DNA of 23,892 nucleotides from the NCBI GenBank assembly GCA_003221005.1, contig QHTZ01000015.1, positions 1 through 23,892 of the forward strand, written 5' to 3'. Numbering within the stretch: the stretch's first letter is position 1; each line of letters begins with the position of its first letter. Both the position numbers and the translations under genes were made by a program. This document shows, piece after piece, positions 2,540-18,824 of this stretch. Source of the DNA: Gemmatimonadota bacterium. Its GTDB lineage: Bacteria > Gemmatimonadota > Gemmatimonadetes > Gemmatimonadales > GWC2-71-9. The notes under the pieces were generated by a model, which had not been told where the DNA came from, searched no databases, and was given only the letters and a program-made list of their open reading frames with translations.

Positions 2540-3093
2540 TTCAAGTGCTCCTTCAGGCGCTTGGCGGCATGGTGATAATGGACCCGCGCCGCTCCCGGCG
2601 ACGTGCCGAGCGCTGCGGCGATGTCGTCGTATTCCATCCCCTGCTGGGCCCGCAGCAGGAACACCTCGCGCTGCATCCGCGGCAGCTGCTCGAGACCCTG
2701 CTGCAGCCGCGCCTCCAGCTCCACCGCAACCGTGCGCTCGTGCGGATCTCCGTCCGTCGCGCGCAACCCGTCGTCGAGCGGCACGACGAGCGCGCGCTTC
2801 GCCCGCCGTGAAGCGTCCTTCAGCACGTTGCCGCCGATGGTGAGCAACCAGGTACGGAACTGGCACTGGTTGCGGAACCGGTCCACGGCGCGGAACGCAC
2901 GAATGAAAGTCTCCTGCACTAGGTCGTCCACGTCGGCGTCGCGTGCGCCCGCGCTCGCGAGAAAGCGGGCGAGCGCGCGGGCGTGGCGGCGCACCAGTTC
3001 GGCCGCCGCCTGCTCGTCGCCGCTCCGCCACGCGGCGATCAGTGCCGCATCAGGAGACGAGGCGGCGGCGGCGACGGCGTCCGCTCGGGCCAT
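2536..3093 (-). CDS. ECF-family RNA polymerase sigma factor (about 185 aa)
   Basis: Region 2 (DDLVQETFIRAF...FRTWLLTI) and region 4 (LPRMQREVFLLR..GMEYDDIAAALG..GAARVHYHHA). Start at ATG 3093 is uncertain. Confidence 0.9.
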   Translation of the reverse strand: MARADAVAAAASSPDAALIAAWRSGDEQAAAELVRRHARALARFLASAGARDADVDDLVQETFIRAFRAVDRFRNQCQFRTWLLTIGGNVLKDASRRAKRALVVPLDDGLRATDGDPHERTVAVELEARLQQGLEQLPRMQREVFLLRAQQGMEYDDIAAALGTSPGAARVHYHHAAKRLKEHLK

Positions 3094-3134: not shown

Positions 3135-3221
3135 GGCGGCAGGGGCGGCAGAGGCGGCAAGAGGGCGGCATTAGCCTGGGGGAGCGTGCCGCCTTTGCTG
3201 CCCTTGCCGCCCGGTGCCGCC
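3135..3221. repeat. 4+4 inverted tandem repeat (GGCGGCA x4 ... TGCCGCC x4), about 9-11 bp period
   Basis: GGCGGCA at 3135, 3144, 3153, 3164; TGCCGCC/TGCTGCC at 3187, 3196, 3205, 3215. Confidence 0.9.
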
Positions 3222-3232
3222 CATCGTAAGTT
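3204..3232 (+). promoter_or_regulatory. Candidate sigma70 promoter of the TetR/box operon
   Basis: TTGCCG (3204-3209), 17 bp spacer, TAAGTT (3227-3232). Confidence 0.6.
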
Positions 3233-3236
3233 GCGG

Positions 3237-3254
3237 TTCGAACATCCGTTCGAA
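3237..3254. promoter_or_regulatory. Candidate TetR (PaaR-type) operator
   Basis: Perfect palindrome TTCGAAC-ATCC-GTTCGAA overlapping the predicted start site, 5 bp before the TetR ATG. Confidence 0.7.
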
Positions 3255-3259
3255 AACCC

Positions 3260-3856
3260 ATGCGCCCCTACGACGAACGCCTCGATCACCTCCTCGCCCA
3301 GGCCGCCCGGGTGTTCGCCGACAAAGGCTACCACTCGACCACCATGCGCGACCTCGCCGCCGCGAGCGGGATGTCCCTCGCCGGGATGTACTACTACGTA
3401 CGCGGCAAGGAAGAGCTGCTGGCGAAGATCCAGGAGCGCTGCTTCACACGGGTGCTCGAGGGCGCGGAGCGGGCGGTCGCGGCCCGGACCGGCGACCCGG
3501 TGGAGCGGCTGCAGGCGTTCATTCGGCACCACGTCACCTTCTTCGCCGCGCATATGCCGGAGATGAAGGTGCTGTCGCACGAAGCCGCGTCGCCCACGGG
3601 GGAGCGGCTGCGCCGCATCGCCACCATCAAGCGCCGCTATGTCGACCTGCTGGAGGGCCTGCTGCGCGAGGCGGCGCCCGACGAGACGCCGGTGGATCGG
3701 AGCGCGGCGGCCTACATCCTCTTCGGCATGATGAACTGGATCTACAACTGGTACCACCCCGCGGGGGAGATCGACCCGGAGCGCCTCGGCGCGCTGATCG
3801 CCCGCATCTTCCTCGGCGGCTTCGTCGAGGCGCGATCCCCGGTACATGGAGGCTGA
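3260..3856 (+). CDS. TetR/AcrR family regulator (PaaR/KstR2-like)
   Basis: HTH AARVFADKGYHSTTMRDLAAASGMSLAGMYYY..GKEELL; C-terminal FGMMNWIYNWY, typical of acyl-CoA-sensing TetRs. Confidence 0.92.
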   Translation: MRPYDERLDHLLAQAARVFADKGYHSTTMRDLAAASGMSLAGMYYYVRGKEELLAKIQERCFTRVLEGAERAVAARTGDPVERLQAFIRHHVTFFAAHMPEMKVLSHEAASPTGERLRRIATIKRRYVDLLEGLLREAAPDETPVDRSAAAYILFGMMNWIYNWYHPAGEIDPERLGALIARIFLGGFVEARSPVHGG

Positions 3857-3862
3857 TGTCTC

Positions 3863-4678
3863 ATGGCGACCCTGACCGAACCCAAGGCCGAACGCAGGAC
3901 GCTGGTGCATTACATGGTCGAAGGCGGTGTCGCGATCCTCGAGCTCGACGATCCCCCCGCCAACACGTACACCTACGAGATGATGCGCCAGCTGGACGAG
4001 GCGATCCTCCAGGCGCGCTTCGATGACAACGCGCACGTCCTGATGGTGCGCGGGCATGGTGAGAAATTCTTCTCCGCGGGCGCGAACATCGCCTATCTCA
4101 ACAGCATCACGCCACGCTACAAGTACTTCTTCTGCCTGCACGCGAACGAGACACTGAACCGCCTCGAGCAGACCCCCAAGCTGACGATCGCGGCGCTGAA
4201 CGGGCACACCGTGGGGGGCGGGCTCGAGATCGCTATGGCGTGCGACATCCGGCTCGCGAAGGAGAACGCCGGGAAGATCGGACTCCCCGAGGTGAACCTG
4301 GGCGTGCTCCCGGGCACCGGCGGCACGCAGCGGCTCGCGCGCATCATCGGGAAGCCCCGGGCGATCGAAATGATGGCGAAGGGGGAGACGTTCTCGTTCG
4401 ACAAGGCGAAGGAGCTGGGCATCGTGAACGAGGTGTTCCCGGCCGACGACTACTGGGACCAGATCATGCTCTACGCGAAACAGTTCTGCCCGCCGCACAA
4501 GGCGGCGAAGGCGGTGGGACTGATCAAGCGCGCGGTCCAGTCGGGCGCCGAGGTGCCGTTCGAGTCGGGTCTCGCGCTCGAGCGCGAGCTGCAGCAGCAG
4601 CTGTTCCAGAGCGACGACGCGAAGGAAGGGATCGCAGCATACGTCGAGAAGCGGGTGGCGGAGTTCAAGGGGAAGTGA
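3863..4678 (+). CDS. Crotonase-family protein resembling the catalytic domain of BoxC
   Basis: FFSAGANI, KYFFCLHANETLN, GGGLEIAMACD and LPEVNLGVLPGTGG. Both crotonase Glu residues are present. GGAGG RBS. Confidence 0.85.
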   Translation: MATLTEPKAERRTLVHYMVEGGVAILELDDPPANTYTYEMMRQLDEAILQARFDDNAHVLMVRGHGEKFFSAGANIAYLNSITPRYKYFFCLHANETLNRLEQTPKLTIAALNGHTVGGGLEIAMACDIRLAKENAGKIGLPEVNLGVLPGTGGTQRLARIIGKPRAIEMMAKGETFSFDKAKELGIVNEVFPADDYWDQIMLYAKQFCPPHKAAKAVGLIKRAVQSGAEVPFESGLALERELQQQLFQSDDAKEGIAAYVEKRVAEFKGK

Positions 4679-6102
4679 GAACCGATCTGCTGATCGGCGG
4701 GGAGTGGCGGGCGGGCGCCCGGCGCTATTGCCTGACGAACCCCGCCACCGAAGAGACGCTCGCCGAGGTGGGCGAGGCGGGCGAAGCGGAGATCGACGCG
4801 GCGGTGCGGGCAGCGCGCGCCTGCTTCGAGGCAAAGGAATGGCGCGAGCTGTCGGCGCGCCGGCGCGGTGCCCTGCTCTTCCGGCTCGCGGACCTGCTCG
4901 AGGAGCGATCTCAGGAGATCGCCGAAGTCGAGACCCGGAACAACGGCAAGCCGCTGTTCGAGTCGAAGATCGACGTCGCGATGGCGGTCGAAACCTTCCG
5001 GTACTACGGCGGCTGGGCCGACAAGCTCACGGGCGACACGCTCCCGGTGAGCGGCAACTTCTTCACCTACACGCTGCGCGAGCCCGTGGGCGTGGTGGGC
5101 GCGATCGTGCCGTGGAACTTCCCATTGAACCTCGCCGCGTGGAAGGTCGCGCCGGCGCTCGCCGCGGGATGCACCGTGGTGCTGAAACCGGCGCATGAGA
5201 CACCTCTCACCGCGCTGCTCCTGGGTGAGCTCGCGCTCGCGGCGGGCTTCCCCGCAGGTGCCCTCAATGTGGTTCCCGGCCCGGGCCCTACGGCCGGCGC
5301 CGCCCTGGTGCGCCATCCCCTCGTGGACAAGATCGCGTTCACCGGGTCCACCGAGGTGGGCCAGTGGATCATGCGGGAGGCCGCCGGCACGCTCAAGCGC
5401 GTCACCTTGGAGCTCGGCGGTAAGAGCCCCAACATCATCTTCGCCGACGCGGATCTCGCGGCCGCCGTGCGCGGCGCGCAGAGCGGGATCTTCTACGGTA
5501 AGGGCGAGGTGTGCGCTGCGGGGTCGCGCCTCCTCGTCGAGCAGTCGGTTCACGACCAGGTGGTGAGTGAGCTCGCCCAGCGTGCGAAGAAGCTTGTCCC
5601 GGGCGATCCTTTCGACAAGAACACCCGTCTCGGCGCCATCGTGTCGAAACAGCAGCAGGAGAAGGTGCTCTCCTACATCGCCGCCGGGGAGCAGGCAGGG
5701 GCGCGCCTAGTGGCTGGAGGGAAGGCCGCGAAGGTGAACGGCAAGGGCTACTTCGTCGAGGCCACCGTGTTCGACGGGGCGCAGCCGGGGATGAAGATCG
5801 TGGACGAGGAGATCTTCGGCCCGGTCCTGTCCGTGCTCACGTTCGCGGGCGAGGAGGAAGGCATCGAGCTCGCCAATCGCTCGATGTACGGGCTTGCGGC
5901 CGGCATCTGGACGAAGGACGTCCAGAGGGCGCACCGCGTAGCGCGTGCCATCAAGGCGGGGACGGTATGGGTGAACACCTACAATTTCTACGACCCGGCG
6001 GCGCCGTTCGGCGGTTACAAGTTCTCGGGGTTCGGGCGGGATCTGGGGAAAGAGGCGCTGAAGAACTATACGGAAGTGAAGACGGTGTGGGTCGGGCTAT
6101 GA
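4675..6102 (+). CDS. NAD(P)-dependent aldehyde dehydrogenase (BoxD-like by context; 475 aa)
   Basis: PWNFP, FTGSTEVG, LELGGKSP, GEVCAAGSR, EEIFGPV, PFGGYK; GTG start overlapping the upstream TGA. Confidence 0.93.
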   Translation: MRTDLLIGGEWRAGARRYCLTNPATEETLAEVGEAGEAEIDAAVRAARACFEAKEWRELSARRRGALLFRLADLLEERSQEIAEVETRNNGKPLFESKIDVAMAVETFRYYGGWADKLTGDTLPVSGNFFTYTLREPVGVVGAIVPWNFPLNLAAWKVAPALAAGCTVVLKPAHETPLTALLLGELALAAGFPAGALNVVPGPGPTAGAALVRHPLVDKIAFTGSTEVGQWIMREAAGTLKRVTLELGGKSPNIIFADADLAAAVRGAQSGIFYGKGEVCAAGSRLLVEQSVHDQVVSELAQRAKKLVPGDPFDKNTRLGAIVSKQQQEKVLSYIAAGEQAGARLVAGGKAAKVNGKGYFVEATVFDGAQPGMKIVDEEIFGPVLSVLTFAGEEEGIELANRSMYGLAAGIWTKDVQRAHRVARAIKAGTVWVNTYNFYDPAAPFGGYKFSGFGRDLGKEALKNYTEVKTVWVGL

Positions 6103-6105
6103 CTG

Positions 6106-6133
6106 GATGCGGGATGCGGGATGCGAGATGCGG
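6106..6133 (+). repeat. 4 x 7-bp tandem repeat GATGCG(G/A)
   Basis: Units at 6106, 6113, 6120 and 6127, between the ALDH stop and the thiolase start. Confidence 0.9.
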
Positions 6134-6136
6134 TCC

Positions 6137-7329
<1,193 letters not shown>

Positions 7330-7330
<1 letters not shown>

Positions 7331-8085
7331 TGGCCGCCTATGAGCGGGTGCTGATCGCGATGGAGAACGGCGTCGCCACGGTGACGCTGAACCGTCCCGA
7401 GAAGCTCAACGCCTTCGACCGCGACTCGTGCGCGGAGCTGCTCGAGGGCCTGCGGATGGTGGCGCGGTCGGAAGCGGTGCGCGTGATCGTGCTCACGGGC
7501 GCCGGGCGCGGGTTCTGCGCCGGCGCCGACCTCAGCGTGCTGGCGGAAGATGGCGCGGCGCTCGTGGCGGCGGGGCGCGACATCGCGCTCACCATCCGCC
7601 ACGCACCGCAGCCCGTAATCGCGTCCGTGAACGGGCCGGCGGCGGGGGGCGGCGCGAACCTCGCGCTCGCGTGCGACTACCGCATCGCATCGGAGCGCGC
7701 ATCGATCGGCCAGGTGTTTCACAAGCTGGGCCTCGCTCCCGATTGGGGCGGCAGCTTCTTCCTGCCACGCTTGGTGGGTACGGGCCGGGCGCTCGAGCTG
7801 GTATGGAGCGCCCGCATGGTGGACGCGAGCGAAGCCGCGCGCCTCGGCCTGTTCGATCGTGTCGTGTCCCACGAGACGCTGCAGCAGGAGACGCGGCGGC
7901 TCGCCGAGCTGTGGGCGGGCCAGCCGCCCCTGGCCGTGCGGAGCGCCAAGGAAGCCGTCTACCGGAGCGGCGAGAGCTCGCTCGCGGCCACGCTCGATCT
8001 CGAGATCGCGCTGCAGCAGCAGCTCTTTGCCAGCGCCGACGCGCGGGCGCGCATCGGCGCGGCGCGCGAGCAGAGGAGTCACTGA
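7330..8085 (+). CDS. Enoyl-CoA hydratase/isomerase, PaaG-like (251 aa)
   Basis: TLNRPEKLNA, FCAGADL, GGGANLALACD, GLAPDWGGSFFLPRLVG. Has the Asp-type site and lacks the two Glu residues. TGATG overlap. Confidence 0.85.
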
Positions 8086-9218
8086 TGGTACGGAAACTGG
8101 GCAACTTCGACGACTGGATCGACTATTTCCGCTACTGGCAGGAGTCGATCGGCCTGCCTCAGGGCGAGCTGCGGGACTTCAAGTTCGAGGCCCAGTTCGG
8201 GGACCAGGACGTCCCCATCATCGAGTTCGGGCATTATAAAGGCCAGCGCAAGTGGCCGACCGTGATGCACATCCCCGACCAACGCATCCGCGACGCCCTG
8301 CTCAACCTGATCGTGTACCAGGGCGATACGGAGTTCGCCTCGGTGGAGCAGCAGCGCAGCCTGCTCACGCATGCGCCCTCCGATTACGACCTGCTGGCGC
8401 TCCAGCGCGTGATGACCGAGGAGATGCGGCACGGGTGGCAGATGTCGTACCTCTTGTGCACGCACTTCGGGGACGAGGGCAGGCGCGAAGCGGCGAAACT
8501 GCTCGAGCGCCGTGCCGACGAAGGGGAGCGCCTGCTCGGCTCGTTCAACGAGCTGGTGGACAACTGGCTCGACTTCTTCACCTACACCCAGTTCATCGAC
8601 CGCGACGGCAAGTTCCAGCTCACCATGCTCTCCGTGTCGGGGTTCGATCCGCTGTCCCGCTCGATGACCCCGATGCTCAAGGAGGAGTCGTTCCACCTGG
8701 GCACGGGGAACAACGGCCTGTTGCGGATCGCGAAGGCGGGGAAGATGCCGCCCGAGCTGATCCAGAAGTTCTTCTACAAGTGGATCCCGACGGCGTTCGA
8801 CCTGTTCGGCACCGACAACTCGTCGTCCGCCCACTGGGCGTACGTGTGGGGGCTCAAGGGGCGCTACGACGAGCGGGACAATCAGGTGGAGCCCGACAAG
8901 GCAAAGCTCAACGAATACAGCCGCGAGCTGTACCGTCAGGAGATCTCGAAGCTCGTCGAGCGGCTCAACATGTTTATCCCCGAGCGCGAGCGGCAGCTCA
9001 AGGTCCCCGTGACGCAGTTCAACCGCAAGATCGGCGTCTACGCCCACCAGCGGTACACGGTGGACGGAGAGCCGGTCGACGATCCGGCGAAGTACCAGGC
9101 GTACCTGGCCACGGTGCTGCCCCAGGCCGCGGACTATCAGCGGGTGCACGACATCGAGAAGGAGCCGGACTGGATCGAGCCGAAGAAGGCCGACAGCCTG
9201 CTCAAGCCATCGGCGTGA
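8085..9218 (+). CDS. boxB: BoxB-like diiron aromatic-CoA epoxidase, short form (377 aa)
   Basis: QGDTEFASVEQQ, APSDYD, EEMRH, DRDGKFQL, SGFDPLSR and EESFH follow the BoxB motif order, with two ExxH diiron motifs. GAGGAG RBS and TGATG overlap. Substrate is unproven. Confidence 0.82.
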   Translation: MVRKLGNFDDWIDYFRYWQESIGLPQGELRDFKFEAQFGDQDVPIIEFGHYKGQRKWPTVMHIPDQRIRDALLNLIVYQGDTEFASVEQQRSLLTHAPSDYDLLALQRVMTEEMRHGWQMSYLLCTHFGDEGRREAAKLLERRADEGERLLGSFNELVDNWLDFFTYTQFIDRDGKFQLTMLSVSGFDPLSRSMTPMLKEESFHLGTGNNGLLRIAKAGKMPPELIQKFFYKWIPTAFDLFGTDNSSSAHWAYVWGLKGRYDERDNQVEPDKAKLNEYSRELYRQEISKLVERLNMFIPERERQLKVPVTQFNRKIGVYAHQRYTVDGEPVDDPAKYQAYLATVLPQAADYQRVHDIEKEPDWIEPKKADSLLKPSA

Positions 9219-9219
9219 T

Positions 9220-9906
9220 GTGACCGCGCTCGTGATCGCGCACCGCGGCGCGTCGGGCTACGAGCTGGAGAACTCGCTCGCCGCCTTCCGCGCCGCCGGG
9301 CCGAAGGGCGCCGATGCCGTTGAGCTGGACGTGCACTCCACCACGGACGGCGCCCTGTTCGTGCACCACGACGACGCCCTCGACGGATCGCGCCGCATTC
9401 CGCAGCTGACGCGCGAGCAGGCCCGCGCGTTCCGCCTGGCGAACGGAGAGCCGCTGCCGCTGCTGGACGAGGCGCTCCAGGCGGCCGGCACGCTCCGCGT
9501 GTTCGTCGAGGTGAAGAGCCTCGACCCGCGCTTCGACGATCGGCTGCTCGCCGCGCTCGAGCGGGGCCCCAACCCTTCGGGCTACGCAGTCCACTCCTTC
9601 GATCACCGCGTGGTTCAGCGGCTCGGTAGCAGGCGCCCCGCCCTGCCCCGCGGCGTGCTCTCTGGGAGCTACCCCGTGCGCCCGCTGGCGCCACTGCACG
9701 ACGCCGGAGCGACCACCCTGTGGCAGGAGCGGTCGCTCGTGGACCGCGCCCTCGTCGATCTGATGCACGGGGCGGGGTGCCAGCTGCTGGTCTGGACCGT
9801 GGACCAGCCGGCGGAAATGGAGCGGCTGCTGTCGCTCGGCGTGGACGGGCTCTGCACGAATTTTCCCGACGTCGGCCGGCGCGTGGTGGATCGGTTCGCC
9901 GCATGA
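9220..9906 (+). CDS. Glycerophosphodiester phosphodiesterase family protein
   Basis: IAHRGASG, ENSLAAF, VELDVH, VHHD, VEVK, WTVD, GVDGLCTN. Confidence 0.9.
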   Translation: MTALVIAHRGASGYELENSLAAFRAAGPKGADAVELDVHSTTDGALFVHHDDALDGSRRIPQLTREQARAFRLANGEPLPLLDEALQAAGTLRVFVEVKSLDPRFDDRLLAALERGPNPSGYAVHSFDHRVVQRLGSRRPALPRGVLSGSYPVRPLAPLHDAGATTLWQERSLVDRALVDLMHGAGCQLLVWTVDQPAEMERLLSLGVDGLCTNFPDVGRRVVDRFAA

Positions 9907-10760
9907 GCGCGCCCCGGGTCGCCGTGATCGGCGCGGGCACGATGGGCCACGGCATCGCCTACGTCGCGGCGCTCGCGGGGTGCGACGTCAGGCTCACCGA
10001 CAGCCGCGCCGATGCGCTCCCACTGGCGCTGGACCGGATCACCGGGCTGTTGGCCGGCGCCGTGCAGCGCGGCAAGCTCACCGCCGACGAGCGGGCGGCC
10101 GTCGCCAGGCGCGTCCGGGGCGACGCCGCGCTCGGCCTCGCCGTCGCTGATGCGGGTGTTGTGATCGAGGCTGTGGTCGAGGACCTGGGCGTCAAGCAGG
10201 CGCTGTTTCGCGAAGTCGAGCACGCGGCACCGCGTGACGCGCTGCTCGCGACGAACACCTCCTCCCTCTCCATCGCCGCCATCGCGGGCGCCGTCCGCGA
10301 CCCCGCCAGAGTGATCGGCATCCATTTCTTCAACCCGGTACACGCGATGAAGCTCGTCGAGATCGTGACGCACCCGAGGCTGGGACATGGCGCCCTCGAT
10401 CGGGCGATCGCGCTCGCGCGGCAGCTCGGCAAGGAGCCGATCGTGGTGAAGGACTCGCCCGGGTTCGCCACGAGCCGGCTGGGCATCTTGCTTGGTCTCG
10501 AGGCGATGCGGATGGTCGAGGAAGGCGTGGCCTCGGTCGAGGACATCGACAAGGCGATGGAGCTGGGCTACAACCACCCGATGGGCCCGCTCAAGCTGTC
10601 GGACCTGGTCGGGCTCGACGTGCGGCTCGCGATCGCCGAGACGTTGCACCAGGCGCTGGAGGAGCCGCAGTTCCAGCCGCCGCGCATCCTGCGCGACAAG
10701 GTCGCGAAGGGCGAGCTCGGGAAGAAATCGGGGAAGGGCTTTTATGTGTGGGGCGGTTAG
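9903..10760 (+). CDS. 3-hydroxyacyl-CoA dehydrogenase (285 aa)
   Basis: VIGAGTMGHGIA, IEAVVE, TNTSSL, HFFNP, HPMGPL..DLVGLD; ATGA overlap. Confidence 0.93.
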   Translation: MSAPRVAVIGAGTMGHGIAYVAALAGCDVRLTDSRADALPLALDRITGLLAGAVQRGKLTADERAAVARRVRGDAALGLAVADAGVVIEAVVEDLGVKQALFREVEHAAPRDALLATNTSSLSIAAIAGAVRDPARVIGIHFFNPVHAMKLVEIVTHPRLGHGALDRAIALARQLGKEPIVVKDSPGFATSRLGILLGLEAMRMVEEGVASVEDIDKAMELGYNHPMGPLKLSDLVGLDVRLAIAETLHQALEEPQFQPPRILRDKVAKGELGKKSGKGFYVWGG

Positions 10761-11623
10761 TGGAGCGATTCAGCCGTATCACCGACGTCCACATTCACGT
10801 GCAGCCGTGGCGCGAGCTCAAGCCCGCGGTGCTCGACGTGATGCGCCGCGGCAAGGAAGCCGACTGGGACGTGCTGCTCCAGCTCATGGACGACCCGGCC
10901 GCTCTGCTCGAGCTGATGGACCGGGCCGGCGTGTGGCGCGCCGGCCTCGTGAACTACCCCGCGCCCGACGTCATGGGCTTCACCGACGCCGCCAACGCGT
11001 TCGCCGCCCGCTACGCGGAGGCGAACCGCGAGCGGCTGCTGCCGTACGGCGGCGTGCATCCCCGGTTCACCCGTGATCCCGCGGGCGACGTGGACCGGCT
11101 GTTCGAGCTCGGGATCCGCGTCCTCAAGCTGCACCCCCCGCACCAGTTGTTCCCCGCGAACGCCTACACCGGGGGACTCGACGCGCTGGGAACGATCTAC
11201 CGACGCGCCGAGGAGCGCGGCTTGCCGGTGATGGTGCATACCGGAACGAGCGTCTTCCCAGGGGCGCGTGCCAAGTACGGCAACCCGCTGGAACTCGATG
11301 ACGTGGCGGTCGACTTTCCCGATCTCACGCTGCTGATGGCCCACGGCGGCCGGCCCCTCTACATGGAGGAGGCGTTCTTCGTCCTGCGCCGGCACAAGAA
11401 CGTGTGGCTCGACGTATCCGGGATTCCGCCGGCGAAGTTGTTGCAGTACTTTCCGCGACTCTCCGAGCTCGCGGACCGGGCGCTGTGGGGGACCGATTGG
11501 CCCGGACCGGGGGTGCGGGACATGAAGCAGAACATCGAGCAGTTCGCGACGCTCCCGCTCTCGGACGCTCACCGCAAGGCGATTCTCGAGACCAATGCGC
11601 TGGCTGTGCTTCCTCCTCGCTAG
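10760..11623 (+). CDS. Amidohydrolase_2 family metal-dependent hydrolase/decarboxylase
   Basis: DVHIH, KLHPPHQ, VMVHTG, MAHGG, WGTDWP; TAGTG overlap. Confidence 0.85.
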   Translation: MERFSRITDVHIHVQPWRELKPAVLDVMRRGKEADWDVLLQLMDDPAALLELMDRAGVWRAGLVNYPAPDVMGFTDAANAFAARYAEANRERLLPYGGVHPRFTRDPAGDVDRLFELGIRVLKLHPPHQLFPANAYTGGLDALGTIYRRAEERGLPVMVHTGTSVFPGARAKYGNPLELDDVAVDFPDLTLLMAHGGRPLYMEEAFFVLRRHKNVWLDVSGIPPAKLLQYFPRLSELADRALWGTDWPGPGVRDMKQNIEQFATLPLSDAHRKAILETNALAVLPPR

Positions 11624-12350
11624 CACTGCCGCCGCCCAGGGGGGCGCGGGGGGTGGGCGGCCGGTGAAGCCGCTGCGGTTCGACCTCGCCGCCATTCCCG
11701 TGACCCGGGACTCGTTCACCTTCTTCCTCGATCGCCAGGCGCACGGCTTCGCTGTGTGGCAGTACGAGACCCGCGCGCGCACTCCGCATGAGGAGGTCGT
11801 GTACTCTGCGTACTCGGAGTTTCAGCCGGTCGAGGAGGAGCGGCTCCGCGTCGTGCTCGATCGGACCAGCGGCGCTCCGCTCGCATCGTACCACCACATC
11901 GAGCTGTTCTCGCCCCGGAGCGACACCCTCATGGTGGAGCACGACCTCGAAGTGAAGGACGGCCGGGTCCAGGGCACGCGCAAGGTCGGCACCAAGGATG
12001 GCAAGGTGAAGGCCATCCCCGTGAGCGTGCCGCTGCCGCCCGGTACCGTGTGGTCCAACTACGAGCTGTACGCCGCCGCGGTCACGAACGCCGAGCCCGG
12101 CGACTCGCTCGCCGCCCCGGACTACCGCGAGTTCAGCGATTCGCTCCGCACGCTGTACTTTTTCGCCGAGCAGCCCACGGCCGTCAACGTGCCAGCGGGG
12201 CGGTTCGACGTCCTCCCCTTACGCAGCGGCGACTTCCGTCTCTACGTCACCCGGCAGCCGCCGCGGCGCGTGGTCAAGGGGGAGACGCTGGACGGGCGGT
12301 TCAGCTTCGAGCTGGCGCACACCGGGCCCGTCGTGCCCACGGACCCGTGA
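11595..12350 (+). CDS. Secreted beta-rich hypothetical protein (DUF3108-like)
   Basis: Signal peptide MRWLCFLLASTAAA-Q; VNVPAGRFDV motif; C-terminal LYVTRQPPRRVVK. Confidence 0.65.
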   Translation: MRWLCFLLASTAAAQGGAGGGRPVKPLRFDLAAIPVTRDSFTFFLDRQAHGFAVWQYETRARTPHEEVVYSAYSEFQPVEEERLRVVLDRTSGAPLASYHHIELFSPRSDTLMVEHDLEVKDGRVQGTRKVGTKDGKVKAIPVSVPLPPGTVWSNYELYAAAVTNAEPGDSLAAPDYREFSDSLRTLYFFAEQPTAVNVPAGRFDVLPLRSGDFRLYVTRQPPRRVVKGETLDGRFSFELAHTGPVVPTDP

Positions 12351-12384
12351 CGTGACCGGACTCCCACAACGGAGTGGACATCTG

Positions 12385-13764
12385 ATGCCGCGACGCGCGC
12401 TCATTGCTGTTTCGGTCAGTCTCGCGCTGTGTCTCGCGCCCGGTGGACTAGTCTGCCAGACGGCAGGCCAGATCAACTACGCCACGTTCACGCTGCCGAA
12501 CGGCCTGCGGGTGATCTACGCGGAGGATCACACCACGGCGGTCGTGTCGGTGGACCTGTGGTACAACGTGGGATCGCGTAACGAGCGCCCCGGCCGCTCC
12601 GGGTTCGCGCATCTGTTCGAGCACCTCATGTTCGAGGGATCGGCGCATGCGCCCAAGGGGCTGCACTCGCACTTGATCGAAAGCGCCGGCGGGCAGGACA
12701 ACGCTTCGACCGCCGAGGACCGCACCAACTTCTACGCGACCGTCCCCTCGAACTACCTGAACGTCGTGCTGTGGCTCGAAGCGGACCGCATGCGCTCCCT
12801 CACCGTGACCGACGAGACGTTCCACAACCAGCGGGAGACCGTGAAGGAGGAGCGCCGGCTCCGGGTGGACAACGAGCCCTACGGCGAGCTCTTCGCCGAC
12901 GGGCTGACCTGGCCGTTCGACAGCGCGACGTGCTTCCCTTACGCGCACAGCGTCATCGGCTCGATGGCGAACCTGAACGCGGCCACGCTCCCGGACGTGA
13001 GGCAGTTCTTCGAGACCTACTACGCGCCCAACAACGCCACGCTCGTCGTGAGCGGCGACTTCCGAGTGGTGGAACTGCGGCGTCTCGTGAACCAGTACTT
13101 CGCCGGCGTGCGCGCGCACCCGACGCCACCCCCGATCGCGTGCGAGTACCGGCTCTCGCCCGGTCCCCAGCACCGCACGCTGACCGACCGCCACGCCAAT
13201 CTCCCTGCGGTCGTGCGGATGTACCGCGTCCCGCCGCACGACGACCCCGACACGCCCGCGCTCGGGCTCCTCAACATCATCCTGGGCGACGGGGAGAGCT
13301 CGCGCCTGAACGTGGCGGTGGTGCGGCGGGAAAAGGCCGCGCTCGGCGTGCAGGTGATGATCAACCCCTACGACGTGCGGCGCGGCCCCGGGGTGCTGCT
13401 TGTCCTCGGAATCGCGAACCAGGGGGTCGATCCGGCGAAGCTCGACTCCTTGCTGGCCCGGGAGGTGGACAGCATGCGCACCACGAACGTGGCGCCGGAG
13501 GAGCTCGAGAAGGCCAAGAACCTGTTCCGCGCCGACTTCGTCCGCACCCGCGAGACCTCACTCGGACGCGCGGAAGAGCTCCAGCACTACCAGATGTTCC
13601 ACCGCTCGCTCGCCGAGATTAACACTGATCTCGATCGCTATCTCGCCGTTACGGCGGACGACATCCGGCGCGTCGCCGGCAAGTACCTCGACGCGGTCAA
13701 TGCGGTGGACGTGATCGTGCGGCCGGGAGCGGGTGGAGCAAAGTCGACGGGAGGTGGCGAATGA
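12385..13764 (+). CDS. M16B zinc peptidase, catalytic subunit
   Basis: LPNGLRV, WYNVGSRNE, HLFEH (HxxEH), VKEERR, YYAPNNA; signal peptide. Alternative start is GTG 12352. Confidence 0.92.
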   Translation: MPRRALIAVSVSLALCLAPGGLVCQTAGQINYATFTLPNGLRVIYAEDHTTAVVSVDLWYNVGSRNERPGRSGFAHLFEHLMFEGSAHAPKGLHSHLIESAGGQDNASTAEDRTNFYATVPSNYLNVVLWLEADRMRSLTVTDETFHNQRETVKEERRLRVDNEPYGELFADGLTWPFDSATCFPYAHSVIGSMANLNAATLPDVRQFFETYYAPNNATLVVSGDFRVVELRRLVNQYFAGVRAHPTPPPIACEYRLSPGPQHRTLTDRHANLPAVVRMYRVPPHDDPDTPALGLLNIILGDGESSRLNVAVVRREKAALGVQVMINPYDVRRGPGVLLVLGIANQGVDPAKLDSLLAREVDSMRTTNVAPEELEKAKNLFRADFVRTRETSLGRAEELQHYQMFHRSLAEINTDLDRYLAVTADDIRRVAGKYLDAVNAVDVIVRPGAGGAKSTGGGE

Positions 13765-15878
13765 GGGCGGTCCGGCGGTCGGGCGGTCGGGCGGTCCAGC
13801 GTCTGCTGGTCCTGGCATCGCTGTTGACCGCCAGACCGCCTGACCGCCTGATCGCCCAGGATTCTTTCCCAATGCGTCCCCCGCGGCCCGCCACGCTCTC
13901 CCCCGCGCGGTTCCCTCCGTTCGAGGAGGCCAGGCTCGCGAACGGGGTCGAGCTGGTCGTGGTCGAGCGGCACGAGGAGCCCGTGGCCTCCGTGAGCCTG
14001 AGCTTCCGTGCCGGGGGGATCTACGACCCGTCGGGGAAGGAAGGGCTCGCGGTGCTGGCGGCGGAAGTCCTGACCAAGGGGACGGCCACCCGCTCCGCGG
14101 AGCAGATCGCCGCCACGATCGAAGGCGTCGGAGGCAGTCTGTCGGCGAGCGCGGGTGACGACTTTCTCACGATCGCGGGCGACGCGTTGAGCGACCAGCT
14201 GGAGCTCCTGTTCGGCCTGGTCGGTGACGTGACGTTGCACGCGACGTTTCCAGCAAGCGAGGTGGAGCTTGCGCGCACGCGGGAGCTGTCGGCCCTGGCG
14301 CTCGAGCTGTCGCAGCCGGCGAGCGTCGCATCGCGGTTCTTCGCAAAGGAGATCTACGGGAGCAACCCCTACGGGCGCAGCTCCACCGAGCAGAGCCTCA
14401 AGGCAATCACGCAGCAGGATCTCGTGGGCTTCGCGCGCGCGCGGCTCCGCCCGGCGGGCGCGCTCCTCGTCGTCGCGGGCGACGTCACCCGAGCGCAGGT
14501 CGAGTCGCTCGCGCAGCAGGCCTTCGCTGGCTGGACGGGTGCGCCGCCGCCCTCGCCCGCCGCGGTGACCGCGCGCGCCAAGCGGGCGAGCGACATGCTG
14601 CTCGTCCACCGCCCCGGGTCGGCACAGTCGAACGTGCTGGTCGGGAACACGACCATCCTGCCCACCGATTCGCTCTACTATGCCGGCCGCCTCGCGACTC
14701 ACGTCCTGGGCGGCGGCGCGGACTCGCGTCTGTTCCGGATTCTGCGCGAGGAGAAGAGCTGGACCTACGACGCCCACGCCGCGCTGCGCCGCTACCGCGG
14801 CCTCGGGTACTGGGTCGCGGCGGTGGAGGTGCGCACCGAAGCGACCGACAGCGCGCTCAAGGAGCTGCTTCATCAGATCGACGTAATCCGGACCCGCGTG
14901 GTCCCGGACTCGGAGCTGGACGCGGCGAAGGGCTATCTCGTGGGCTCCTTCCCGCTCACGATCGAGACCCCGCGGCAGATCGCGGGCCAGGTGACGAGCG
15001 CCAAGCTGCTTGGCCTCGACCCTGACTACCTGCGGCTGTACCGCGAGCGGCTGAGAGCGGTCCGGTCACTCGCGGTCCGGGCAGCCGCCCAGCGCCTGTA
15101 CCACGCCGGCGTCTTATCTATCGTCGTCGCGGGAGATGGGGCGAAGCTGTACGACGCGCTCAAGGCCATCGCCCCGGTGCGGGTCGTGGACGTGGACGGC
15201 AACCCGATCGCGCCTGCGGACCTCGTCCCGAAGGCCAGTGCGCTGCCGCTCGACCCGGCACAGCTCGTACCCCACCGCGACAGCTTCGCGGTGACGCTCC
15301 AGGGGAAGCCGATCGGCGCACGGGTGACCGCCGTGCGACGCACGGCGGACTCGCTCGTGTTCAACGAGACGCTCGCGTTCGGGACCGGTGGCAAGCAGGA
15401 CTTGACGGTTGTGTTCGATCCCGCCGATCTGAGCGTGCGGCGGGTAGACCAGACGGGCAGCACCGGCGGCCAGCCGAACGAGGTGCACCTGGTGTACGGC
15501 GCCGGGCGCGTCAAGGGGAGCGCCGTCGTGCCGGACCAGAGCGGCACGCCCCGCACGGTGGCGATTGACACGACCATCGCCCCGGGGACCTACGACGACA
15601 ACGCGATCGATGTGATCGTGCTCGCGCTCCCGCTCGCCCCGGGGAAGCGCTTCGCGGTCAATGGATTCTCGTCGGGCGACGCGAGCGCCAAGGTGCTCAC
15701 CGTGGCGGTAGCCGGGCTCGACAGCGTGACCGTACCCGCCGGCACGTTCGCCGCATTCAAGGTCCAGGTGTCGGGCGGCCAGGCGCCGTTCGTCCTCCAC
15801 GTCACTCGCGACGCTCCCCGCCGGATCGTCAAGTTCGCGATGGTGGGAGCGCCGATCGTCTTCGAACTCGTGCAATAG
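13761..15878 (+). CDS. M16B peptidase non-catalytic subunit with extra C-terminal beta domain
   Basis: LANGVELVV; HxxEH replaced by VLAAE; SRLFRILREEKSWTY (R/Y motif); about 210-aa C-terminal extension containing VTVPAGTF. Confidence 0.88.
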   Translation: MRAVRRSGGRAVQRLLVLASLLTARPPDRLIAQDSFPMRPPRPATLSPARFPPFEEARLANGVELVVVERHEEPVASVSLSFRAGGIYDPSGKEGLAVLAAEVLTKGTATRSAEQIAATIEGVGGSLSASAGDDFLTIAGDALSDQLELLFGLVGDVTLHATFPASEVELARTRELSALALELSQPASVASRFFAKEIYGSNPYGRSSTEQSLKAITQQDLVGFARARLRPAGALLVVAGDVTRAQVESLAQQAFAGWTGAPPPSPAAVTARAKRASDMLLVHRPGSAQSNVLVGNTTILPTDSLYYAGRLATHVLGGGADSRLFRILREEKSWTYDAHAALRRYRGLGYWVAAVEVRTEATDSALKELLHQIDVIRTRVVPDSELDAAKGYLVGSFPLTIETPRQIAGQVTSAKLLGLDPDYLRLYRERLRAVRSLAVRAAAQRLYHAGVLSIVVAGDGAKLYDALKAIAPVRVVDVDGNPIAPADLVPKASALPLDPAQLVPHRDSFAVTLQGKPIGARVTAVRRTADSLVFNETLAFGTGGKQDLTVVFDPADLSVRRVDQTGSTGGQPNEVHLVYGAGRVKGSAVVPDQSGTPRTVAIDTTIAPGTYDDNAIDVIVLALPLAPGKRFAVNGFSSGDASAKVLTVAVAGLDSVTVPAGTFAAFKVQVSGGQAPFVLHVTRDAPRRIVKFAMVGAPIVFELVQ
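13766..13856. repeat. 4+4 inverted tandem repeat (GGCGGTC x4 ... GACCGCC x4), 8-bp period, inside a signal peptide
   Basis: GGCGGTC at 13766, 13774, 13782, 13790; GACCGCC at 13826, 13834, 13842 and GATCGCC at 13850. Confidence 0.92.
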
Positions 15879-15889
15879 CAGAGGACCCG

Positions 15890-17335
15890 ATGAGAGCAGC
15901 CACCGCATACCTGCTCGCCGGCTGGGCGGCGGCGTGCGCCTCCAGCGGGGCGCACGCGGCGCCTGCTGCCGTTCCTGCCGCCGCAGCCACGCCTGCGCCG
16001 CGGGGAGCCACCGGCACCGCTGCCGAGAGCCTCAGCGTCAACCGCCCCCAGTACCCGTCCACTTACCAGCGCCACCCCTACCCGCCCGTCGTCATCACCA
16101 ACGCCACGATCATGACCGCCGCCGGACAGGAGATCCCGCACGCGTCGATCCTGTTCCGTGAAGGCCAGATCGTCGCGGTCGGCGCCACGGTGCAGGCGCC
16201 GTCCGACGCGATCAAGGTGGACGGCACCGGCAAGTGGGTGACGCCCGGCATCATCGACGTGCACTCGCACTTGGGCGTCTACGCGGCCCCTGCGACGGAC
16301 GCCGAGTCGGACGGCAACGAGCTCACCGGTCCCGTCACGGCGGAGGTGTGGGCGGAGCACTCCTTCTGGCCGCAGGACCCGCAGATTCCGCTCGCGATCG
16401 CGGGGGGCGTGACCACGATTCAGGCGCTCCCCGGGTCGGGCAACCTGATCGGCGGGCGGAGCGCGGTCCTGAAGCTCATCCCCACCCGCACCGTGCAGGC
16501 GATGAAATTCCCCGGCGCCCATTACGGCCTCAAGATGGCGTGCGGTGAGAACCCGAAGCGCGTGTACGGACGGCGGAACCAGTTCCCATCGACTCGGATG
16601 GGCAACGTGGCGGGCTACCGCGGCGCCTTCATCCAGGCGGAGGAATATCGGCGCAAGTGGGACGCGTGGAACCGCGACCACAAGGGTGATCCCCCCGACC
16701 GCAACCTGCGGCTCGAGACCCTGGCCGAGGTGCTGCGGGGCAACATCTACGTGCAGAACCACTGCTACCGCGCCGACGAGATGGCGCAGATGCTCGACCT
16801 CGCCCGCGAATTCGGCTTCAAGATCCGCGCGTTCCATCACGCGGTGGAGTCGTACAAGATCGGCGATCTCCTGGCGCAGGCGGGCACGGCCTCGGCCGTG
16901 TGGGCGGACTGGTACGGCTTCAAAGAAGAGGCGATGGACGGCATCCAGCAAAACGCGGCGCTGCTCCAGCAGGCGGGGGCGCGCATCACGCTGCACTCGG
17001 ACGATCCGGGCGGCATCCAGCGCCTGAACCAGGAGACGGCGAAGGCGATGTACGCCGGGCAACGCGCCGGGATCCCGGTCACGCGGGACCAGGCGCTGCG
17101 ATGGATCACCGCGAACCCGGCGTGGGTGTTGGGGCTCGACTCGGTCGTCGGTACTCTCGAGCCCGGGAAGATGGCAGACGTCGTGCTGTGGTCAGGAGAT
17201 CCGTTCTCCGTCTACAGCAAGGCGGTGCAGGTCTATAACGACGGGTGGCTGGTGTACGACCGCAACGACCCGGCGCACCAACCGCGGTCCGACTTCGAGC
17301 TGGGCCAGGAGCCGCCGCCCGGGAGCGACCGATGA
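15890..17335 (+). CDS. Amidohydrolase_1 family, probable lipoprotein, metal site intact
   Basis: Lipobox-like WAAAC; PGIIDVHSH, KMACGENPK, NHCYR, FHHAVE, LHSD, GTLEPGKMADVVLW. Confidence 0.88.
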   Translation: MRAATAYLLAGWAAACASSGAHAAPAAVPAAAATPAPRGATGTAAESLSVNRPQYPSTYQRHPYPPVVITNATIMTAAGQEIPHASILFREGQIVAVGATVQAPSDAIKVDGTGKWVTPGIIDVHSHLGVYAAPATDAESDGNELTGPVTAEVWAEHSFWPQDPQIPLAIAGGVTTIQALPGSGNLIGGRSAVLKLIPTRTVQAMKFPGAHYGLKMACGENPKRVYGRRNQFPSTRMGNVAGYRGAFIQAEEYRRKWDAWNRDHKGDPPDRNLRLETLAEVLRGNIYVQNHCYRADEMAQMLDLAREFGFKIRAFHHAVESYKIGDLLAQAGTASAVWADWYGFKEEAMDGIQQNAALLQQAGARITLHSDDPGGIQRLNQETAKAMYAGQRAGIPVTRDQALRWITANPAWVLGLDSVVGTLEPGKMADVVLWSGDPFSVYSKAVQVYNDGWLVYDRNDPAHQPRSDFELGQEPPPGSDR

Positions 17336-18540
17336 TCGCGGTGCTACTCGCCCAGACGATCGCGATCACGGGCGGCACGGTGTATCCCGTGTCCGGTCCG
17401 AAGGTCGACCATGCGACGGTCCTGATGCGCGACGGCCGGATCGCGGCCGTGGGCGCCAACGTGCCGGTTCCCCACGATGCCCTGCGGATCGACGCGACCG
17501 GCAAATGGGTCACGCCGGGGCTGATCGATGGCGCAGGTCAGATGGGTTTGACGGAGATCGGCGCGGTGCCGGGGACGAACGACGCTGCGGTGCGGAACGA
17601 CACCGTGGCCGCGTCGTTCAATGTGGCCGAAGGGATCAACCCGGCGTCCACACTCATCCCGATCACACGCATCGAAGGCGTCACGACGACGCTGGCCGCG
17701 CCCGAGACCGGTCTCATCCGCGGGCAGGCGGTGCTCATCGACCTCGACGGAGCGACCCTTGAGGCGATGCTCGTGAAGTCGCCGGTCGCCGTCGTGGCGG
17801 AGCTGTCGGAGCGCACCAAGGATGCGGGAGGCGGGTCCCGCGCCGGCGCCGCGGAGCGGCTGCGCCGTGTGTTCGACGACGCGCTCGAGTACGGCCGCCG
17901 CAAGACCGACTGGGCGCGCGCGCAGATCCACCCGCTCGCGGCGTCCGGCGCTGACCTGGCGGCGCTCGGTCCGGTGCTGCGGGGAGAGCTCCCCCTTATC
18001 GTGATCGCGAACCGGCGCAGCGATATCGAGACCGCGCTCCGTATCGGGCGGGAGTACCACCTGAAGCTGATCCTCGCGGGCGCAGCGGAGGGGTGGTTGA
18101 GCGCGAGCGCCATCGCGCGCGCCAACGTGCCGGTCCTGGTCCGGCCGCTCGACAACGTTCCCTCCTACGACGCGCTCGGCGTCCGCTACGAGAACGCCGC
18201 TTTACTCGCGAGGGCCGGCGTGAAGGTTGCGCTGCTGGAAACCGACACCCACAACTCCCGCAACCTGCGCCAGCAGGCTGGAAACGCAGTCGCGAACGGC
18301 ATGACATGGGACCAGGCGCTGCGGGCGGTGACGCTGTCGCCTGCCGAGATCTTCGGCGTGGCCGACCGCTACGGCTCAATCGCGCTCGGCAAAGTCGCCG
18401 ACGTCGTGGTCTGGTCGGGAGACCCGTTCGAGTTTGCGACGGCTGTGGAGCACGTCTACATCCGGGGACGGGAGATTCCGCTCAAGAGCCGGCAGACGGA
18501 GCTGCTGGAACGGTATCGAAAGCTGCCACCGACGTATTAG
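17332..18540 (+). CDS. Amidohydrolase_1 family, degenerate metal site (402 aa)
   Basis: Same fold motifs (DATGKWVTPGLID, GKVADVVVWSGDPF), but HxH is replaced by AGQ; ATGA overlap. Confidence 0.85.
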   Translation: MIAVLLAQTIAITGGTVYPVSGPKVDHATVLMRDGRIAAVGANVPVPHDALRIDATGKWVTPGLIDGAGQMGLTEIGAVPGTNDAAVRNDTVAASFNVAEGINPASTLIPITRIEGVTTTLAAPETGLIRGQAVLIDLDGATLEAMLVKSPVAVVAELSERTKDAGGGSRAGAAERLRRVFDDALEYGRRKTDWARAQIHPLAASGADLAALGPVLRGELPLIVIANRRSDIETALRIGREYHLKLILAGAAEGWLSASAIARANVPVLVRPLDNVPSYDALGVRYENAALLARAGVKVALLETDTHNSRNLRQQAGNAVANGMTWDQALRAVTLSPAEIFGVADRYGSIALGKVADVVVWSGDPFEFATAVEHVYIRGREIPLKSRQTELLERYRKLPPTY

Positions 18541-18612
18541 GCGGCAAGTGGCGGATGGAGACGGTAAGGGGCGGTATACCGCCTCCTACCGCCCCTTCCC
18601 GCCTTCTACCGC
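18540..18612. repeat. 4+4 inverted tandem repeat, 10-bp period, between convergent genes; possible bidirectional terminator
   Basis: GGCGG/GACGG units at 18540, 18550, 18560, 18570; central palindrome GGCGGTATACCGCC (18570-18583); T(A/C)CCGC units at 18577, 18587, 18597, 18607. No U-tract. Confidence 0.88.
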
Positions 18613-18824
18613 TTATCGAACTTGACGATCCCGTCGATCACGGTGAACAGGGTATCGTCCGAAGCACGGCGCACGTTGGTGCCCGGGTGGAACTTCGTGC
18701 CGCGCTGTTTCACGAGGATGCTGCCGGCGGTGACGAACTCTCCTGCGAAGCGTTTGACGCCGAGGTCCTTGGGGCCTGAGTCCCGCCCGTTGCGTGAGGA
18801 GCCGACGCCCTTTTTGTGTGCCAT
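18606..18824 (-). CDS. rpmA: 50S ribosomal protein L27 (72 aa, short)
   Basis: [16 protein letters not shown]...[20 protein letters not shown]. Confidence 0.96.

Follow-up and report, generated by a model that had tools for sequence, protein, structure and literature searches.

A genome-wide class of non-mobile tandem-repeat hairpins in a soil Gemmatimonadales bacterium

What gives rise to short GC-rich tandem repeats at five places, three of them paired into hairpins, along an otherwise ordinary piece of bacterial chromosome? The stretch that raises this question (contig QHTZ01000015.1, 23,892 nt; hereafter, the window) is the entire contig C60 of the genome of a soil Gemmatimonadales bacterium (G000; an assembly of 2.79 Mb in 141 contigs, 69% GC), and the original prediction had ascribed its repeats, described as four-copy arrays with a GCGG core, to a lineage-specific repeat-generating or mobile process. 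Here, we report that the five loci belong to a class of tandem-repeat hairpins that is spread across the genome and is not mobile. To account for this class, we favor, with a probability of roughly 0.5, an in situ passenger model in which the arrays would have grown by slippage, their arms would be matched by template switching, and most of them would be tolerated passengers.

All five loci are present where they had been placed, in the gene contexts given for them, and each is also listed by Tandem Repeats Finder (TRF). The first lies in the divergent spacer between genes for an extracytoplasmic function (ECF) sigma factor (2536-3093, minus strand) and a TetR regulator (start at 3260); it consists of a 5' arm of four GGCGGCA-core units with a period of 9 to 11 (3135-3170, 41 nt upstream of the ECF sigma start), a spacer or loop defined by sequence and fold (3171-3186), and a 3' arm of four TGCCGCC-core units (3187-3221, 37 nt upstream of the TetR start), with TRF giving 3135-3170 and 3187-3222 at period 9 with 3.8 and 3.9 copies, respectively. 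The second is a single plus-strand arm of GGATGCG with a period of 7 and 4.1 copies (6105-6133, the same in TRF), which fills the gap between the stop codon of an aldehyde dehydrogenase (ALDH) gene (6100-6102) and the start of a thiolase gene (6128). Within the thiolase gene, a further single arm on the plus strand, with four to five GGCGG-core units of period 10 (6921-6960), is read in frame as a surface loop (GRSEAGGGGKGRS); TRF lists it as 6920-6945, period 10. The fourth locus is at an M16/M16 peptidase junction, where the 5' arm, GGCGGTCN x 4.5 with a period of 8 (13766-13801), begins 5 nt after an ATG (13761) that overlaps the upstream stop codon as ATGA (13761-13764), and encodes the Arg/Gly-rich n-region of the M16 signal peptide; it is followed by a spacer read as the hydrophobic core QRLLVLASLL (13802-13824) and by the 3' arm, NGACCGCC x 4, read as TARPPDRLIAQ (13825-13856), all on the plus strand (TRF, period 8 with 4.5 and 4.0 copies). 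Lastly, between the convergent ends of an amidohydrolase gene and rpmA (18606-18824, minus strand; ribosomal protein L27), a 5' arm of four GGCGG/GACGG-core units with a period of 10 to 11 (18540-18576), the first G of which closes the amidohydrolase stop codon TAG (18538-18540), faces a 3' arm of TACCGCC-core x 3.6 (18577-18612; TRF, period 10 and 3.6 copies), the outer unit of which contains the rpmA stop codon TAG (18606-18608, minus strand).

Each of the three paired loci folds into one long interrupted stem of the 33-bp class, and in none of the six folds, compared on both strands with 200 dinucleotide shuffles apiece, was any shuffle equally stable. The predicted energies on the two strands were -68.6 and -63.5 kcal/mol for 3135-3221 (z of -6.2 and -5.2), -81.9 and -72.2 kcal/mol for 13766-13856 (z of -8.5 and -8.2), and -44.4 and -50.3 kcal/mol for 18540-18612 (z of -4.0 and -5.8). 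Since contigs from another soil metagenome (X4) span 3135-3221 and 13766-13856 without gaps, the hairpins are no assembly artifact. Four units per arm, as predicted, describes most of the window arrays (3.6 to 4.5 copies by TRF), with three loci paired and those at 6105 and 6921 standing as single arms, although TRF counts just 2.6 copies at 6920-6945. The 14-mer said to be common to the 6921 and 18540 loci is found at 6943 and 18562; it occurs 17 times in the genome, in every case within the GGGGCGGTAA family. A GCGG core for all five loci does not hold, as the unit at 6105-6133, GGATGCG, is of a separate family without a GGCGG core, GGGATGC, which comprises 16 arrays genome-wide.

With TRF run over the whole genome, we found 375 non-redundant arrays with a period of 7, 8, or 10 and at least 3.3 copies, compared to 44 in an order-5 Markov genome used as the null. 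When neighboring arrays with complementary units were joined by a strict rule, at least 78 convergent pairs (purine- or G-rich array, spacer, complementary array) were obtained, 52 of them with period 7, and 141 of the 375 arrays fall in such pairs. A separate detector for GGCGG elements (at least three GGCGG spaced 7 to 22 nt, then at least three CCGCC within 60 nt) picked out 18 loci of the 2.79-Mb genome; it gave no case of the reverse order and no locus in any of five order-5 Markov genomes. This genome-wide scan, which had been suggested along with the original prediction, puts the arrays far above chance, and neither chance nor high-GC composition can be their source. The units, in turn, are very diverse, with at least 15 families in G000, and GGCGG is one flavor of the class: pair units include GGGACGG, AATGCGG, CGGGATG, AGACGTC, GAACGCG, GAAACGG, GACGGAAG, and GGGCGGTAAG, while array units include GGGGGAC (41 arrays), GGAATGC (25 arrays), GGGAAAC, GGTCGGAC, GGGATGC, and GGGGCGGTAA.

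The elements have a defined arm length, with a median of 30 to 31 nt when the period is 7 or 8 and of 39.5 nt when it is 10; the median element has 84 nt, 33 pairs, and a folding energy of -56 kcal/mol; and the spacers, 6 to 93 nt long, are of arbitrary sequence. The G-rich arm comes first in 71 of the 78 pairs, with 6 neutral and a single C-first pair, an order that is a real polarity, as the architecture reads the same after reverse complementation. Among pairs with a spacer of at least 6 nt, 74 are inverted compared to 3 direct, and two of those three have self-complementary units.

To determine how widely such elements occur, we used an exact pattern (3+3 period-8 GGCGGY units with a spacer of 8 to 38 nt) on one genome per species, 185,579 species in all, and obtained 106 stretches, 80 of which were listed. 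Among these 80, 74 are from metagenome-assembled genomes (MAGs) labeled Gemmatimonadota, -ales, or -aceae, and six are from one MAG labeled Thermomicrobiales. The latter, SMAG_U3822 (L059, L061, L067, L110, L122, L132), carries the sole non-Gemmatimonadota label among the matches listed and is either a mislabeled bin or a second lineage with the feature. High GC alone therefore does not produce GGCGGY hairpins, given their near-confinement to Gemmatimonadota, and a lineage-restricted repeat-generating process is borne out among the matches listed. The same matches assign the organism of the window to the Gemmatimonadales. Within the Gemmatimonadales, the feature blooms in some lineages: arrays and pairs per Mb were 134 and 28 in G000 (16 and 0 in its Markov null) and, in samples of 80 to 200 kb from relatives, 110 and 25 in G001, 125 and 12 in G003, 145 and 35 in G020, 60 and 0 in G026, and 70 and 5 in G028, with 20 to 40 arrays and 0 to 10 pairs in G013, G014, G018, G019, G021, G023, and G027. 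A clean split by family (present in f1 and f3, absent in f2) was undone by wider sampling, which gave a patchy 0 to 35 pairs per Mb. G020 has a dominant family of its own, GTGATGAN x ~5 followed by TCATCACN x ~5 with spacers of 12 to 16 nt, of which six copies lie in 200 kb (G020:C1:100001-300000), three of them within 2 kb (110033-112103). Ku is encoded in 24 of 31 relatives, with no relation to array density and none in G020; the SbcD C-terminal domain PF12320 was detected in none of 31 Gemmatimonadales genomes (25 of them at least 90% complete), a weak negative given that the control was found in only 5 of 14 model genomes.

Copy number within the class peaks rather than decays, with 118 of 380 period-7 TRF arrays holding 4.0 to 4.49 copies. 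Four units could supply the four G-tracts of a regulatory G-quadruplex, as proposed for the GGGAATC/GGGGAYT repeats of other bacteria, and this would fit the polarity of the G-rich strand as well as the four-unit mode; at least four G-runs of at least three are present in 108 of 243 period-7 arrays, counted from sequence only, and circular dichroism evidence for the Xanthomonas and Nostoc units has been published (Rehm et al. 2015, PMC4692102). However, the mode of 4.0 to 4.5 copies at period 7 was observed for units with a G-run of at least three (81 of 206), for units with a G-run of two (25 + 21 of 129), and for units with none (10 of 38), such as AGACGTC and GCGAGAT. In addition, 68 of the 243 arrays cannot form a quadruplex even with two-G tracts, the GGCGGTCN units of the window offer GG tracts only, and the neighboring complementary arm would compete as a duplex stem. 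Because the mode holds without G-runs and the main unit of G020 has isolated Gs, the quadruplex cannot be the general reason; the four-unit preference is independent of G-quadruplex potential, and we consider the quadruplex explanation improbable.

We then examined where the elements lie, with genes called by our own codon-usage caller (2,665 genes; 91.6% coding and 8.4% non-coding). The 78 pairs are divided into 34 intergenic, 11 across gene ends, and 33 within genes, and the 375 arrays into 101 fully intergenic, 70 across gene ends, and 204 within called genes. At same-strand junctions, the hairpin begins a median of 2.5 nt past the stop codon and leaves 15.5 nt to the next start, with 19 of 22 closer to the stop. 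Those inside genes fall between Pfam domains in the SucA/E2 fusion (two), LigD, NadE, TrpE, MnmE, YidC, DnaX, and DnaG, and they also occur in RadA, GlcF, and the central loop of a major facilitator superfamily transporter. About 7% of genes carry an array, always at tolerant places; the sites used are the interval from a stop codon to the next ribosome-binding site, the n- and c-regions of signal peptides, interdomain linkers, and a dispensable C-terminal tail.

Arrays within genes bear the mark of translation. A stop triplet is present in the coding-strand consensus unit of 8 of the 204 in-gene arrays, compared to 29 of 202 strand-instances in intergenic DNA. Six of these eight were inspected by eye (C60:13825, C62, both arms of C77, C102, and C120:25508), and in each of them the unit whose stop would fall in frame is altered at just that triplet. 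In the window, the single unit of the 13825-13856 arm with a would-be in-frame TGA carries AGA instead, with AGACCGCC in place of TGACCGCC at 13833. The rarity of in-gene stop triplets, together with the change of in-frame units at the stop, indicates that the arrays are translated by ribosomes and filtered by selection.

The period-8 GGCGG elements are mostly at the 5' ends of genes for exported proteins, and the M16 gene of the window shows how they are read. Its element is translated as M-RAVRRSGGRAV-QRLLVLASLL-TARPPDRLIAQ-DSFP, so that the 5' arm makes the basic n-region and the 3' arm the c-region ending in A-Q, on either side of the hydrophobic core. A signal peptide ending in ..AQ before (D)SFP/YP is found in all 23 orthologues, of which four (G000, G001, G002, and G009) have both arms, G017 has a decayed element, G015 has a single arm of another unit (GCGGGCAN x4), and 17, including four same-genus genomes, have no arrays; the signal peptide has 32 to 38 residues with arrays compared to 22 to 24 in the four same-genus genomes without. 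In the M16 region of G001 (L039, about 1497-1616), a TAG lies in the frame of the mature protein and a GTG start in another frame, which may mean that the frame has shifted, that translation starts elsewhere, or that the hairpin was misread in sequencing. The reading ..LTA.PP[DN]RLTAQ recurs in G000 at C62, C75, and C77 and, with period 10, at C80 and C46. Among the 80 listed period-8 GGCGGY hairpins of other MAGs, 17, several of which are mutual orthologues and hence not independent, lie on both sides of a hydrophobic core, with ..AQ as the last residues at the predicted cleavage site; 3 have a hydrophobic spacer without AQ, 14 are otherwise at a 5' end, 37 are without a coding frame, and 9 are internal and in frame, 2 of these at the same GlcF site as a period-10 array of G000. 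We infer that ordinary signal peptides, with GGCGG (Arg-Arg) before the core and ACCGCC-CAG (Thr-Ala-Gln) after it, could provide an inverted-repeat seed of the right polarity.

Comparison of orthologous sites revealed that sites persist while sequences change: unit, period, and copy number turn over, or the array is absent. At the ALDH/thiolase junction (6105), G005 has an empty site with an overlapping ATGA, short unique spacers occur in G007, G022, and G026, and the arrays are GGATGCG x4 in G000, GGAACGC x3 in G006, and a full 4+4 AATGCGG hairpin in G009. In the window itself, the ATGA at the ALDH end (6099-6102) persists, but the thiolase start now lies 26 nt downstream, past the repeat array. 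The thiolase loop (6921) has a mixed period-10 array in G000, GGCGGTCGAG x4 in G006 (period 10), GGCGGACG x3 in G005 (period 8), 6+4 G-rich units in G009, where it is 17 residues longer, and no array in the other nine. Upstream of TetR (3135), hairpins of different sequence are present in G006 and G005 between conserved flanks, and none is present in three family-f3 genomes. The interval between the 3' arm and the TetR start also contains a palindrome, GTTCGAAC-n4-CGTTCGAA (3231-3258), conserved in six relatives, which is probably the TetR operator.

Two further sites lie in RadA and at the end of rpmA. The linker from the RadA zinc finger to its ATPase domain was readable in 18 of 20 loci, with a length of 123 to 171 nt; it has 141 nt in G000 and its nearest relatives, with or without an array, and arrays are clear in G000, G001, G015, and G017, partial in G005, G003, and G014, and absent further away. 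At the rpmA end (18540), 8 of 18 loci could be placed with the query. In G003, the L27 stop codon is directly followed by a 5+5 GACGGRCAAA hairpin (-82.8 kcal/mol), while G002 has the G-rich arm alone and G005 a C-rich remnant. The L27 protein of G000, with 72 residues, lacks the basic C-terminal tail of ~16 residues (HKDKKRQKVSVYPKA) found in the G002, G003, and G005 orthologues; since it ends ..VKFDKR*, with the stop codon in a repeat unit, compared to ..VKFEHKDKKRQKVSVYPKA* in the orthologues, the array has replaced the tail. Presence/absence variation among relatives, which had been named as a test of the repeat family, is thus observed, both in the empty ALDH/thiolase site of G005 and in the four same-genus M16 orthologues without arrays.

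A rival account is that hairpins of RNA or single-stranded DNA are what selection maintains. On this account, ~33-bp stems would serve as operon punctuation (barriers to 3'-exonucleases, RNase III sites, or signals for pausing or termination) and would slow early translation in signal peptides, with tandem units being the quickest mutational route to a long stem. Both arms switch unit together with the fold kept (rpmA in G000 compared to G003; M16 and the thiolase junction in G000 compared to G009), stem length is constant across periods 7 and 8, and the placement of hairpins against stop codons, with ~15 nt left before the next start, and around signal-peptide cores agrees with such roles; most of the Xanthomonas repeats are transcribed, according to Rehm et al. 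2015 (PMC4692102). Yet the benefit of a -60 kcal/mol stem in the linkers of dnaX, dnaG, radA, sucA, nadE, or trpE is hard to see, sites are freely lost in close relatives, the number of pairs varies so widely among relatives, and polarity is not explained by structural need. Moreover, none of the 6 terminator-like sites between 2900 and 19200 (6.4 expected) is at an array, with no T-run terminators there; a scan for canonical promoters found none at arrays, Rfam gave 0 matches in the window at the gathering score, and one metatranscriptome (X19) yielded 13 contigs, with zero on an array. Weighing both sides, we regard selection for the hairpins themselves as unlikely, though as the strongest of the rivals.

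The original prediction had also entertained mobility and cargo genes between the arms. A non-autonomous element, such as a miniature inverted-repeat transposable element (MITE), a repetitive extragenic palindromic (REP) sequence or REPIN, or a Rickettsia palindromic element (RPE), might insert into junctions and in frame into genes; the in-frame presence recalls RPEs, unit families are common to many loci, arrays come and go at orthologous sites with one empty junction in G005, and the genome has two Y1_Tnp genes of the REP-associated tyrosine transposase (RAYT) or IS200-like type (G000:C27:17898-18239 and G000:C66:6398-6736; L165, L166). The tests speak otherwise. Flanking direct repeats of at least 5 nt accompany 4 of 78 elements (5%) compared to 12.7% of 1980-odd random placements, so there is no sign of target-site duplication; within each of four unit families, the spacers are unrelated in sequence and length (8 to 93 nt); the RadA linker has the same length with or without an array; the M16 spacer is a functional hydrophobic core rather than imported DNA; and single arms occur (6105 and 6921). 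With spacers of just 6 to 93 nt, there are no cargo genes either. A REP/RAYT link was rejected, as both RAYT-like genes adjoin other, non-tandem palindromes, not arrays. The C27 gene is flanked on both sides by one conventional palindromic repeat of ~90 nt (GTGCGCTGAAGCGCCGGCTCGGCC...), which represents a separate REP-like family. A Pfam scan of 24 open reading frames of the window revealed no transposase domain, in line with what had been predicted. We therefore judge a mobile element very improbable; the class is no transposon, and it is best described, partly by inference, as the product of an in situ, fast-turnover repeat process.

Still less credible, in our assessment, is that the arrays are iteron-like binding sites, four direct and four inverted, for a DNA- or RNA-binding protein. 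Periods of 7 to 10 nt and a fixed unit number would suit such a role, and TAACTGA heptamers of Beggiatoaceae have been proposed as regulator sites (MacGregor 2015, PMC4679880). However, the many unit families in one genome, with others in relatives, would require many specificities, and arrays sit inside housekeeping genes. Nor are units over-represented as single copies in the genome, with GGCGGTCG observed 835 times compared to 857 expected and other units near expectation; an uptake-signal or Chi-like oligomer was rejected on the same count.

We return to the in situ passenger model, which takes the form, abundance, polarity, placement, translational constraint, and turnover described above as its material. 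Growth would start from short inverted repeats, for example the GGCGG...CCGCC that ordinary signal peptides contain in their codons for Arg-Arg ... Thr-Ala-Gln, and replication slippage of a short unit would extend the arrays in place. Intrastrand template switching (quasi-palindrome correction) would maintain the complementarity of the arms, and growth would halt at functional constraints, where selection would act, and at ~30 to 40 bp of stem, leaving elements that are mostly tolerated passengers at unconstrained sequence. The intercistronic ones, once transcribed, probably behave as stable stem-loops in polycistronic RNA.

Several results weigh against this model. The same unit families turn up at many loci, and also in relatives (AATGCGG in G000, G001, and G009), and because purely local growth does not explain this, some inter-locus copying or unit preference must exist. 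Strict G-first polarity and the four-unit optimum do not follow from the model. Arm complementarity is 0.87 in register and 0.87 after a shift of one unit, with the best register strictly better in 24 of 73, so that arm-to-arm copying is inseparable from two homogeneous arrays. No unit-number variants were seen at arrays in contigs of three soil metagenomes (X1, X2, X4), which as contigs drop rare variants, and the sole difference was a 2-nt loss in the 18575 loop; the loops themselves hold no extra structure (58 loops, median z of -0.04 compared to shuffles), and gene positions rest on a home-made caller. Two candidate lines of support were set aside: a pre-existing inner hairpin as the seed, since spacers fold no better than shuffles, and mirror-image unit variants as evidence of arm pairing, which are uninformative with in-register identity equal to shifted identity.

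A more radical version, which we hold tentatively and think somewhat unlikely, is a sequence-independent "stem-writing" mutational process that would build and repeatedly rewrite complementary four-unit arrays on either side of any short DNA in some lineages, namely this Gemmatimonadales genus, G020, and, by analogy, perhaps Xanthomonas. Such a process would form a category of its own within templated mutagenesis, and the four-unit heptamer repeats would then be explained with no need for G-quadruplexes. It would also keep supplying new coding sequence in the form of signal-peptide n- and c-regions, linkers, and tail-trimming stop codons, as in L27.

The surroundings of the five loci are those of an ordinary chromosome: by Pfam, the window encodes ECF sigma, TetR, enoyl-CoA hydratases, ALDH, thiolase, two M16 peptidases, amidohydrolases, L21, RNase G, and a prolyl oligopeptidase. 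A hexamer, CCCCTC x 6, at 20501-20536 near the 5' end of the RNase E/G gene (minus strand) is an amino-acid repeat, its length being a multiple of three. For annotation, the class carries a warning, as strong hairpins in these genomes enclose start codons, signal peptides, and gene ends. It also offers a testable system for DNA-level repeat dynamics that shape protein ends and linkers: the arrays are not confined to spacers, and in a signal peptide one arm can supply the charged part and the other the cleavage part, with the hydrophobic core between them.

How, then, does the class compare with known systems? REP sequences and REPINs are extragenic, have a conserved sequence, and have copies that flank a RAYT gene; they resemble the present elements as hairpin repeats of comparable size between operon genes, with likely similar consequences for RNA, whereas the arms here are tandem arrays of many sequences, about half of them intragenic, and the RAYT-like genes keep company with other palindromes. 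RPEs are conserved insertions of 100 to 150 bp found in frame in protein genes at tolerant positions, a location shared by the arrays here; unlike RPEs, our elements have no conserved sequence, bring no net insertion to RadA, and have arms that flank pre-existing coding sequence. MITEs differ in the target-site duplication and conserved internal sequence that are absent here. STRR heptamers of cyanobacteria are dispersed tandem arrays with lineage-specific units, mainly intergenic and usually longer; they are not known as in-frame parts of genes. The likeness to them is in the dispersed heptamer arrays, and the differences are the longer arrays there and, in Nostoc, few inverted pairs, the latter according to Rehm et al. 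2015 (PMC4692102). The TAACTGA repeats of Beggiatoaceae, Cyanobacteria, and Bacteroidetes, as described in MacGregor 2015 (PMC4679880), are likewise sets of 2 to 6 tandem heptamers, many per genome, next to start codons, but they are nearly all direct (169 direct sets and one indirect), of one AT-rich unit, and upstream of genes.

Of the resemblance to STRRs and REP elements first suggested for the window, REP-type mobility falls away, while the heptamer comparison leads to the closest known relative, the four-unit GGGAATC heptamer repeat of Xanthomonas with its convergent pairs. Our literature searches gave no paper on such repeats in Gemmatimonadota and no work on the GGGAATC repeats after 2015. 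According to the study that described the latter (Rehm et al. 2015, PLoS One, PMC4692102), G-rich heptamers, GGGAATC in Xanthomonas and GGGGA(C/T)T in Nostoc, have a clear four-copy preference, form 70 to 75 convergent array pairs on opposite strands per Xanthomonas genome, lie near stop codons, and vary in length and sequence between related species with the site usually kept. Shared with the present class are the four-copy mode, the convergent G-first architecture, and the proximity to stop codons. In contrast to the one consensus unit per genome, arrays of up to 26 units, and 89 to 93% intergenic placement given there, G000 has its many unit families, with periods 8 and 10 and GGCGG cores, departs from the consensus GGGNATC/GGGGAYT (the window units have GGCGG or GGATGCG), and holds over half of its arrays in genes, even though the fully intergenic share is still enriched. 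The four-unit repeats of Xanthomonas and Nostoc were left without a function in that report, with the quadruplex offered as the reason for four (PMC4692102); because the same architecture here includes units unable to form quadruplexes, something else must underlie both the four-unit count and the polarity. New here are the Gemmatimonadales host, the many unit families, the periods of 8 and 10, the independence of the four-unit mode from G-tracts, and the heavy presence in coding DNA.

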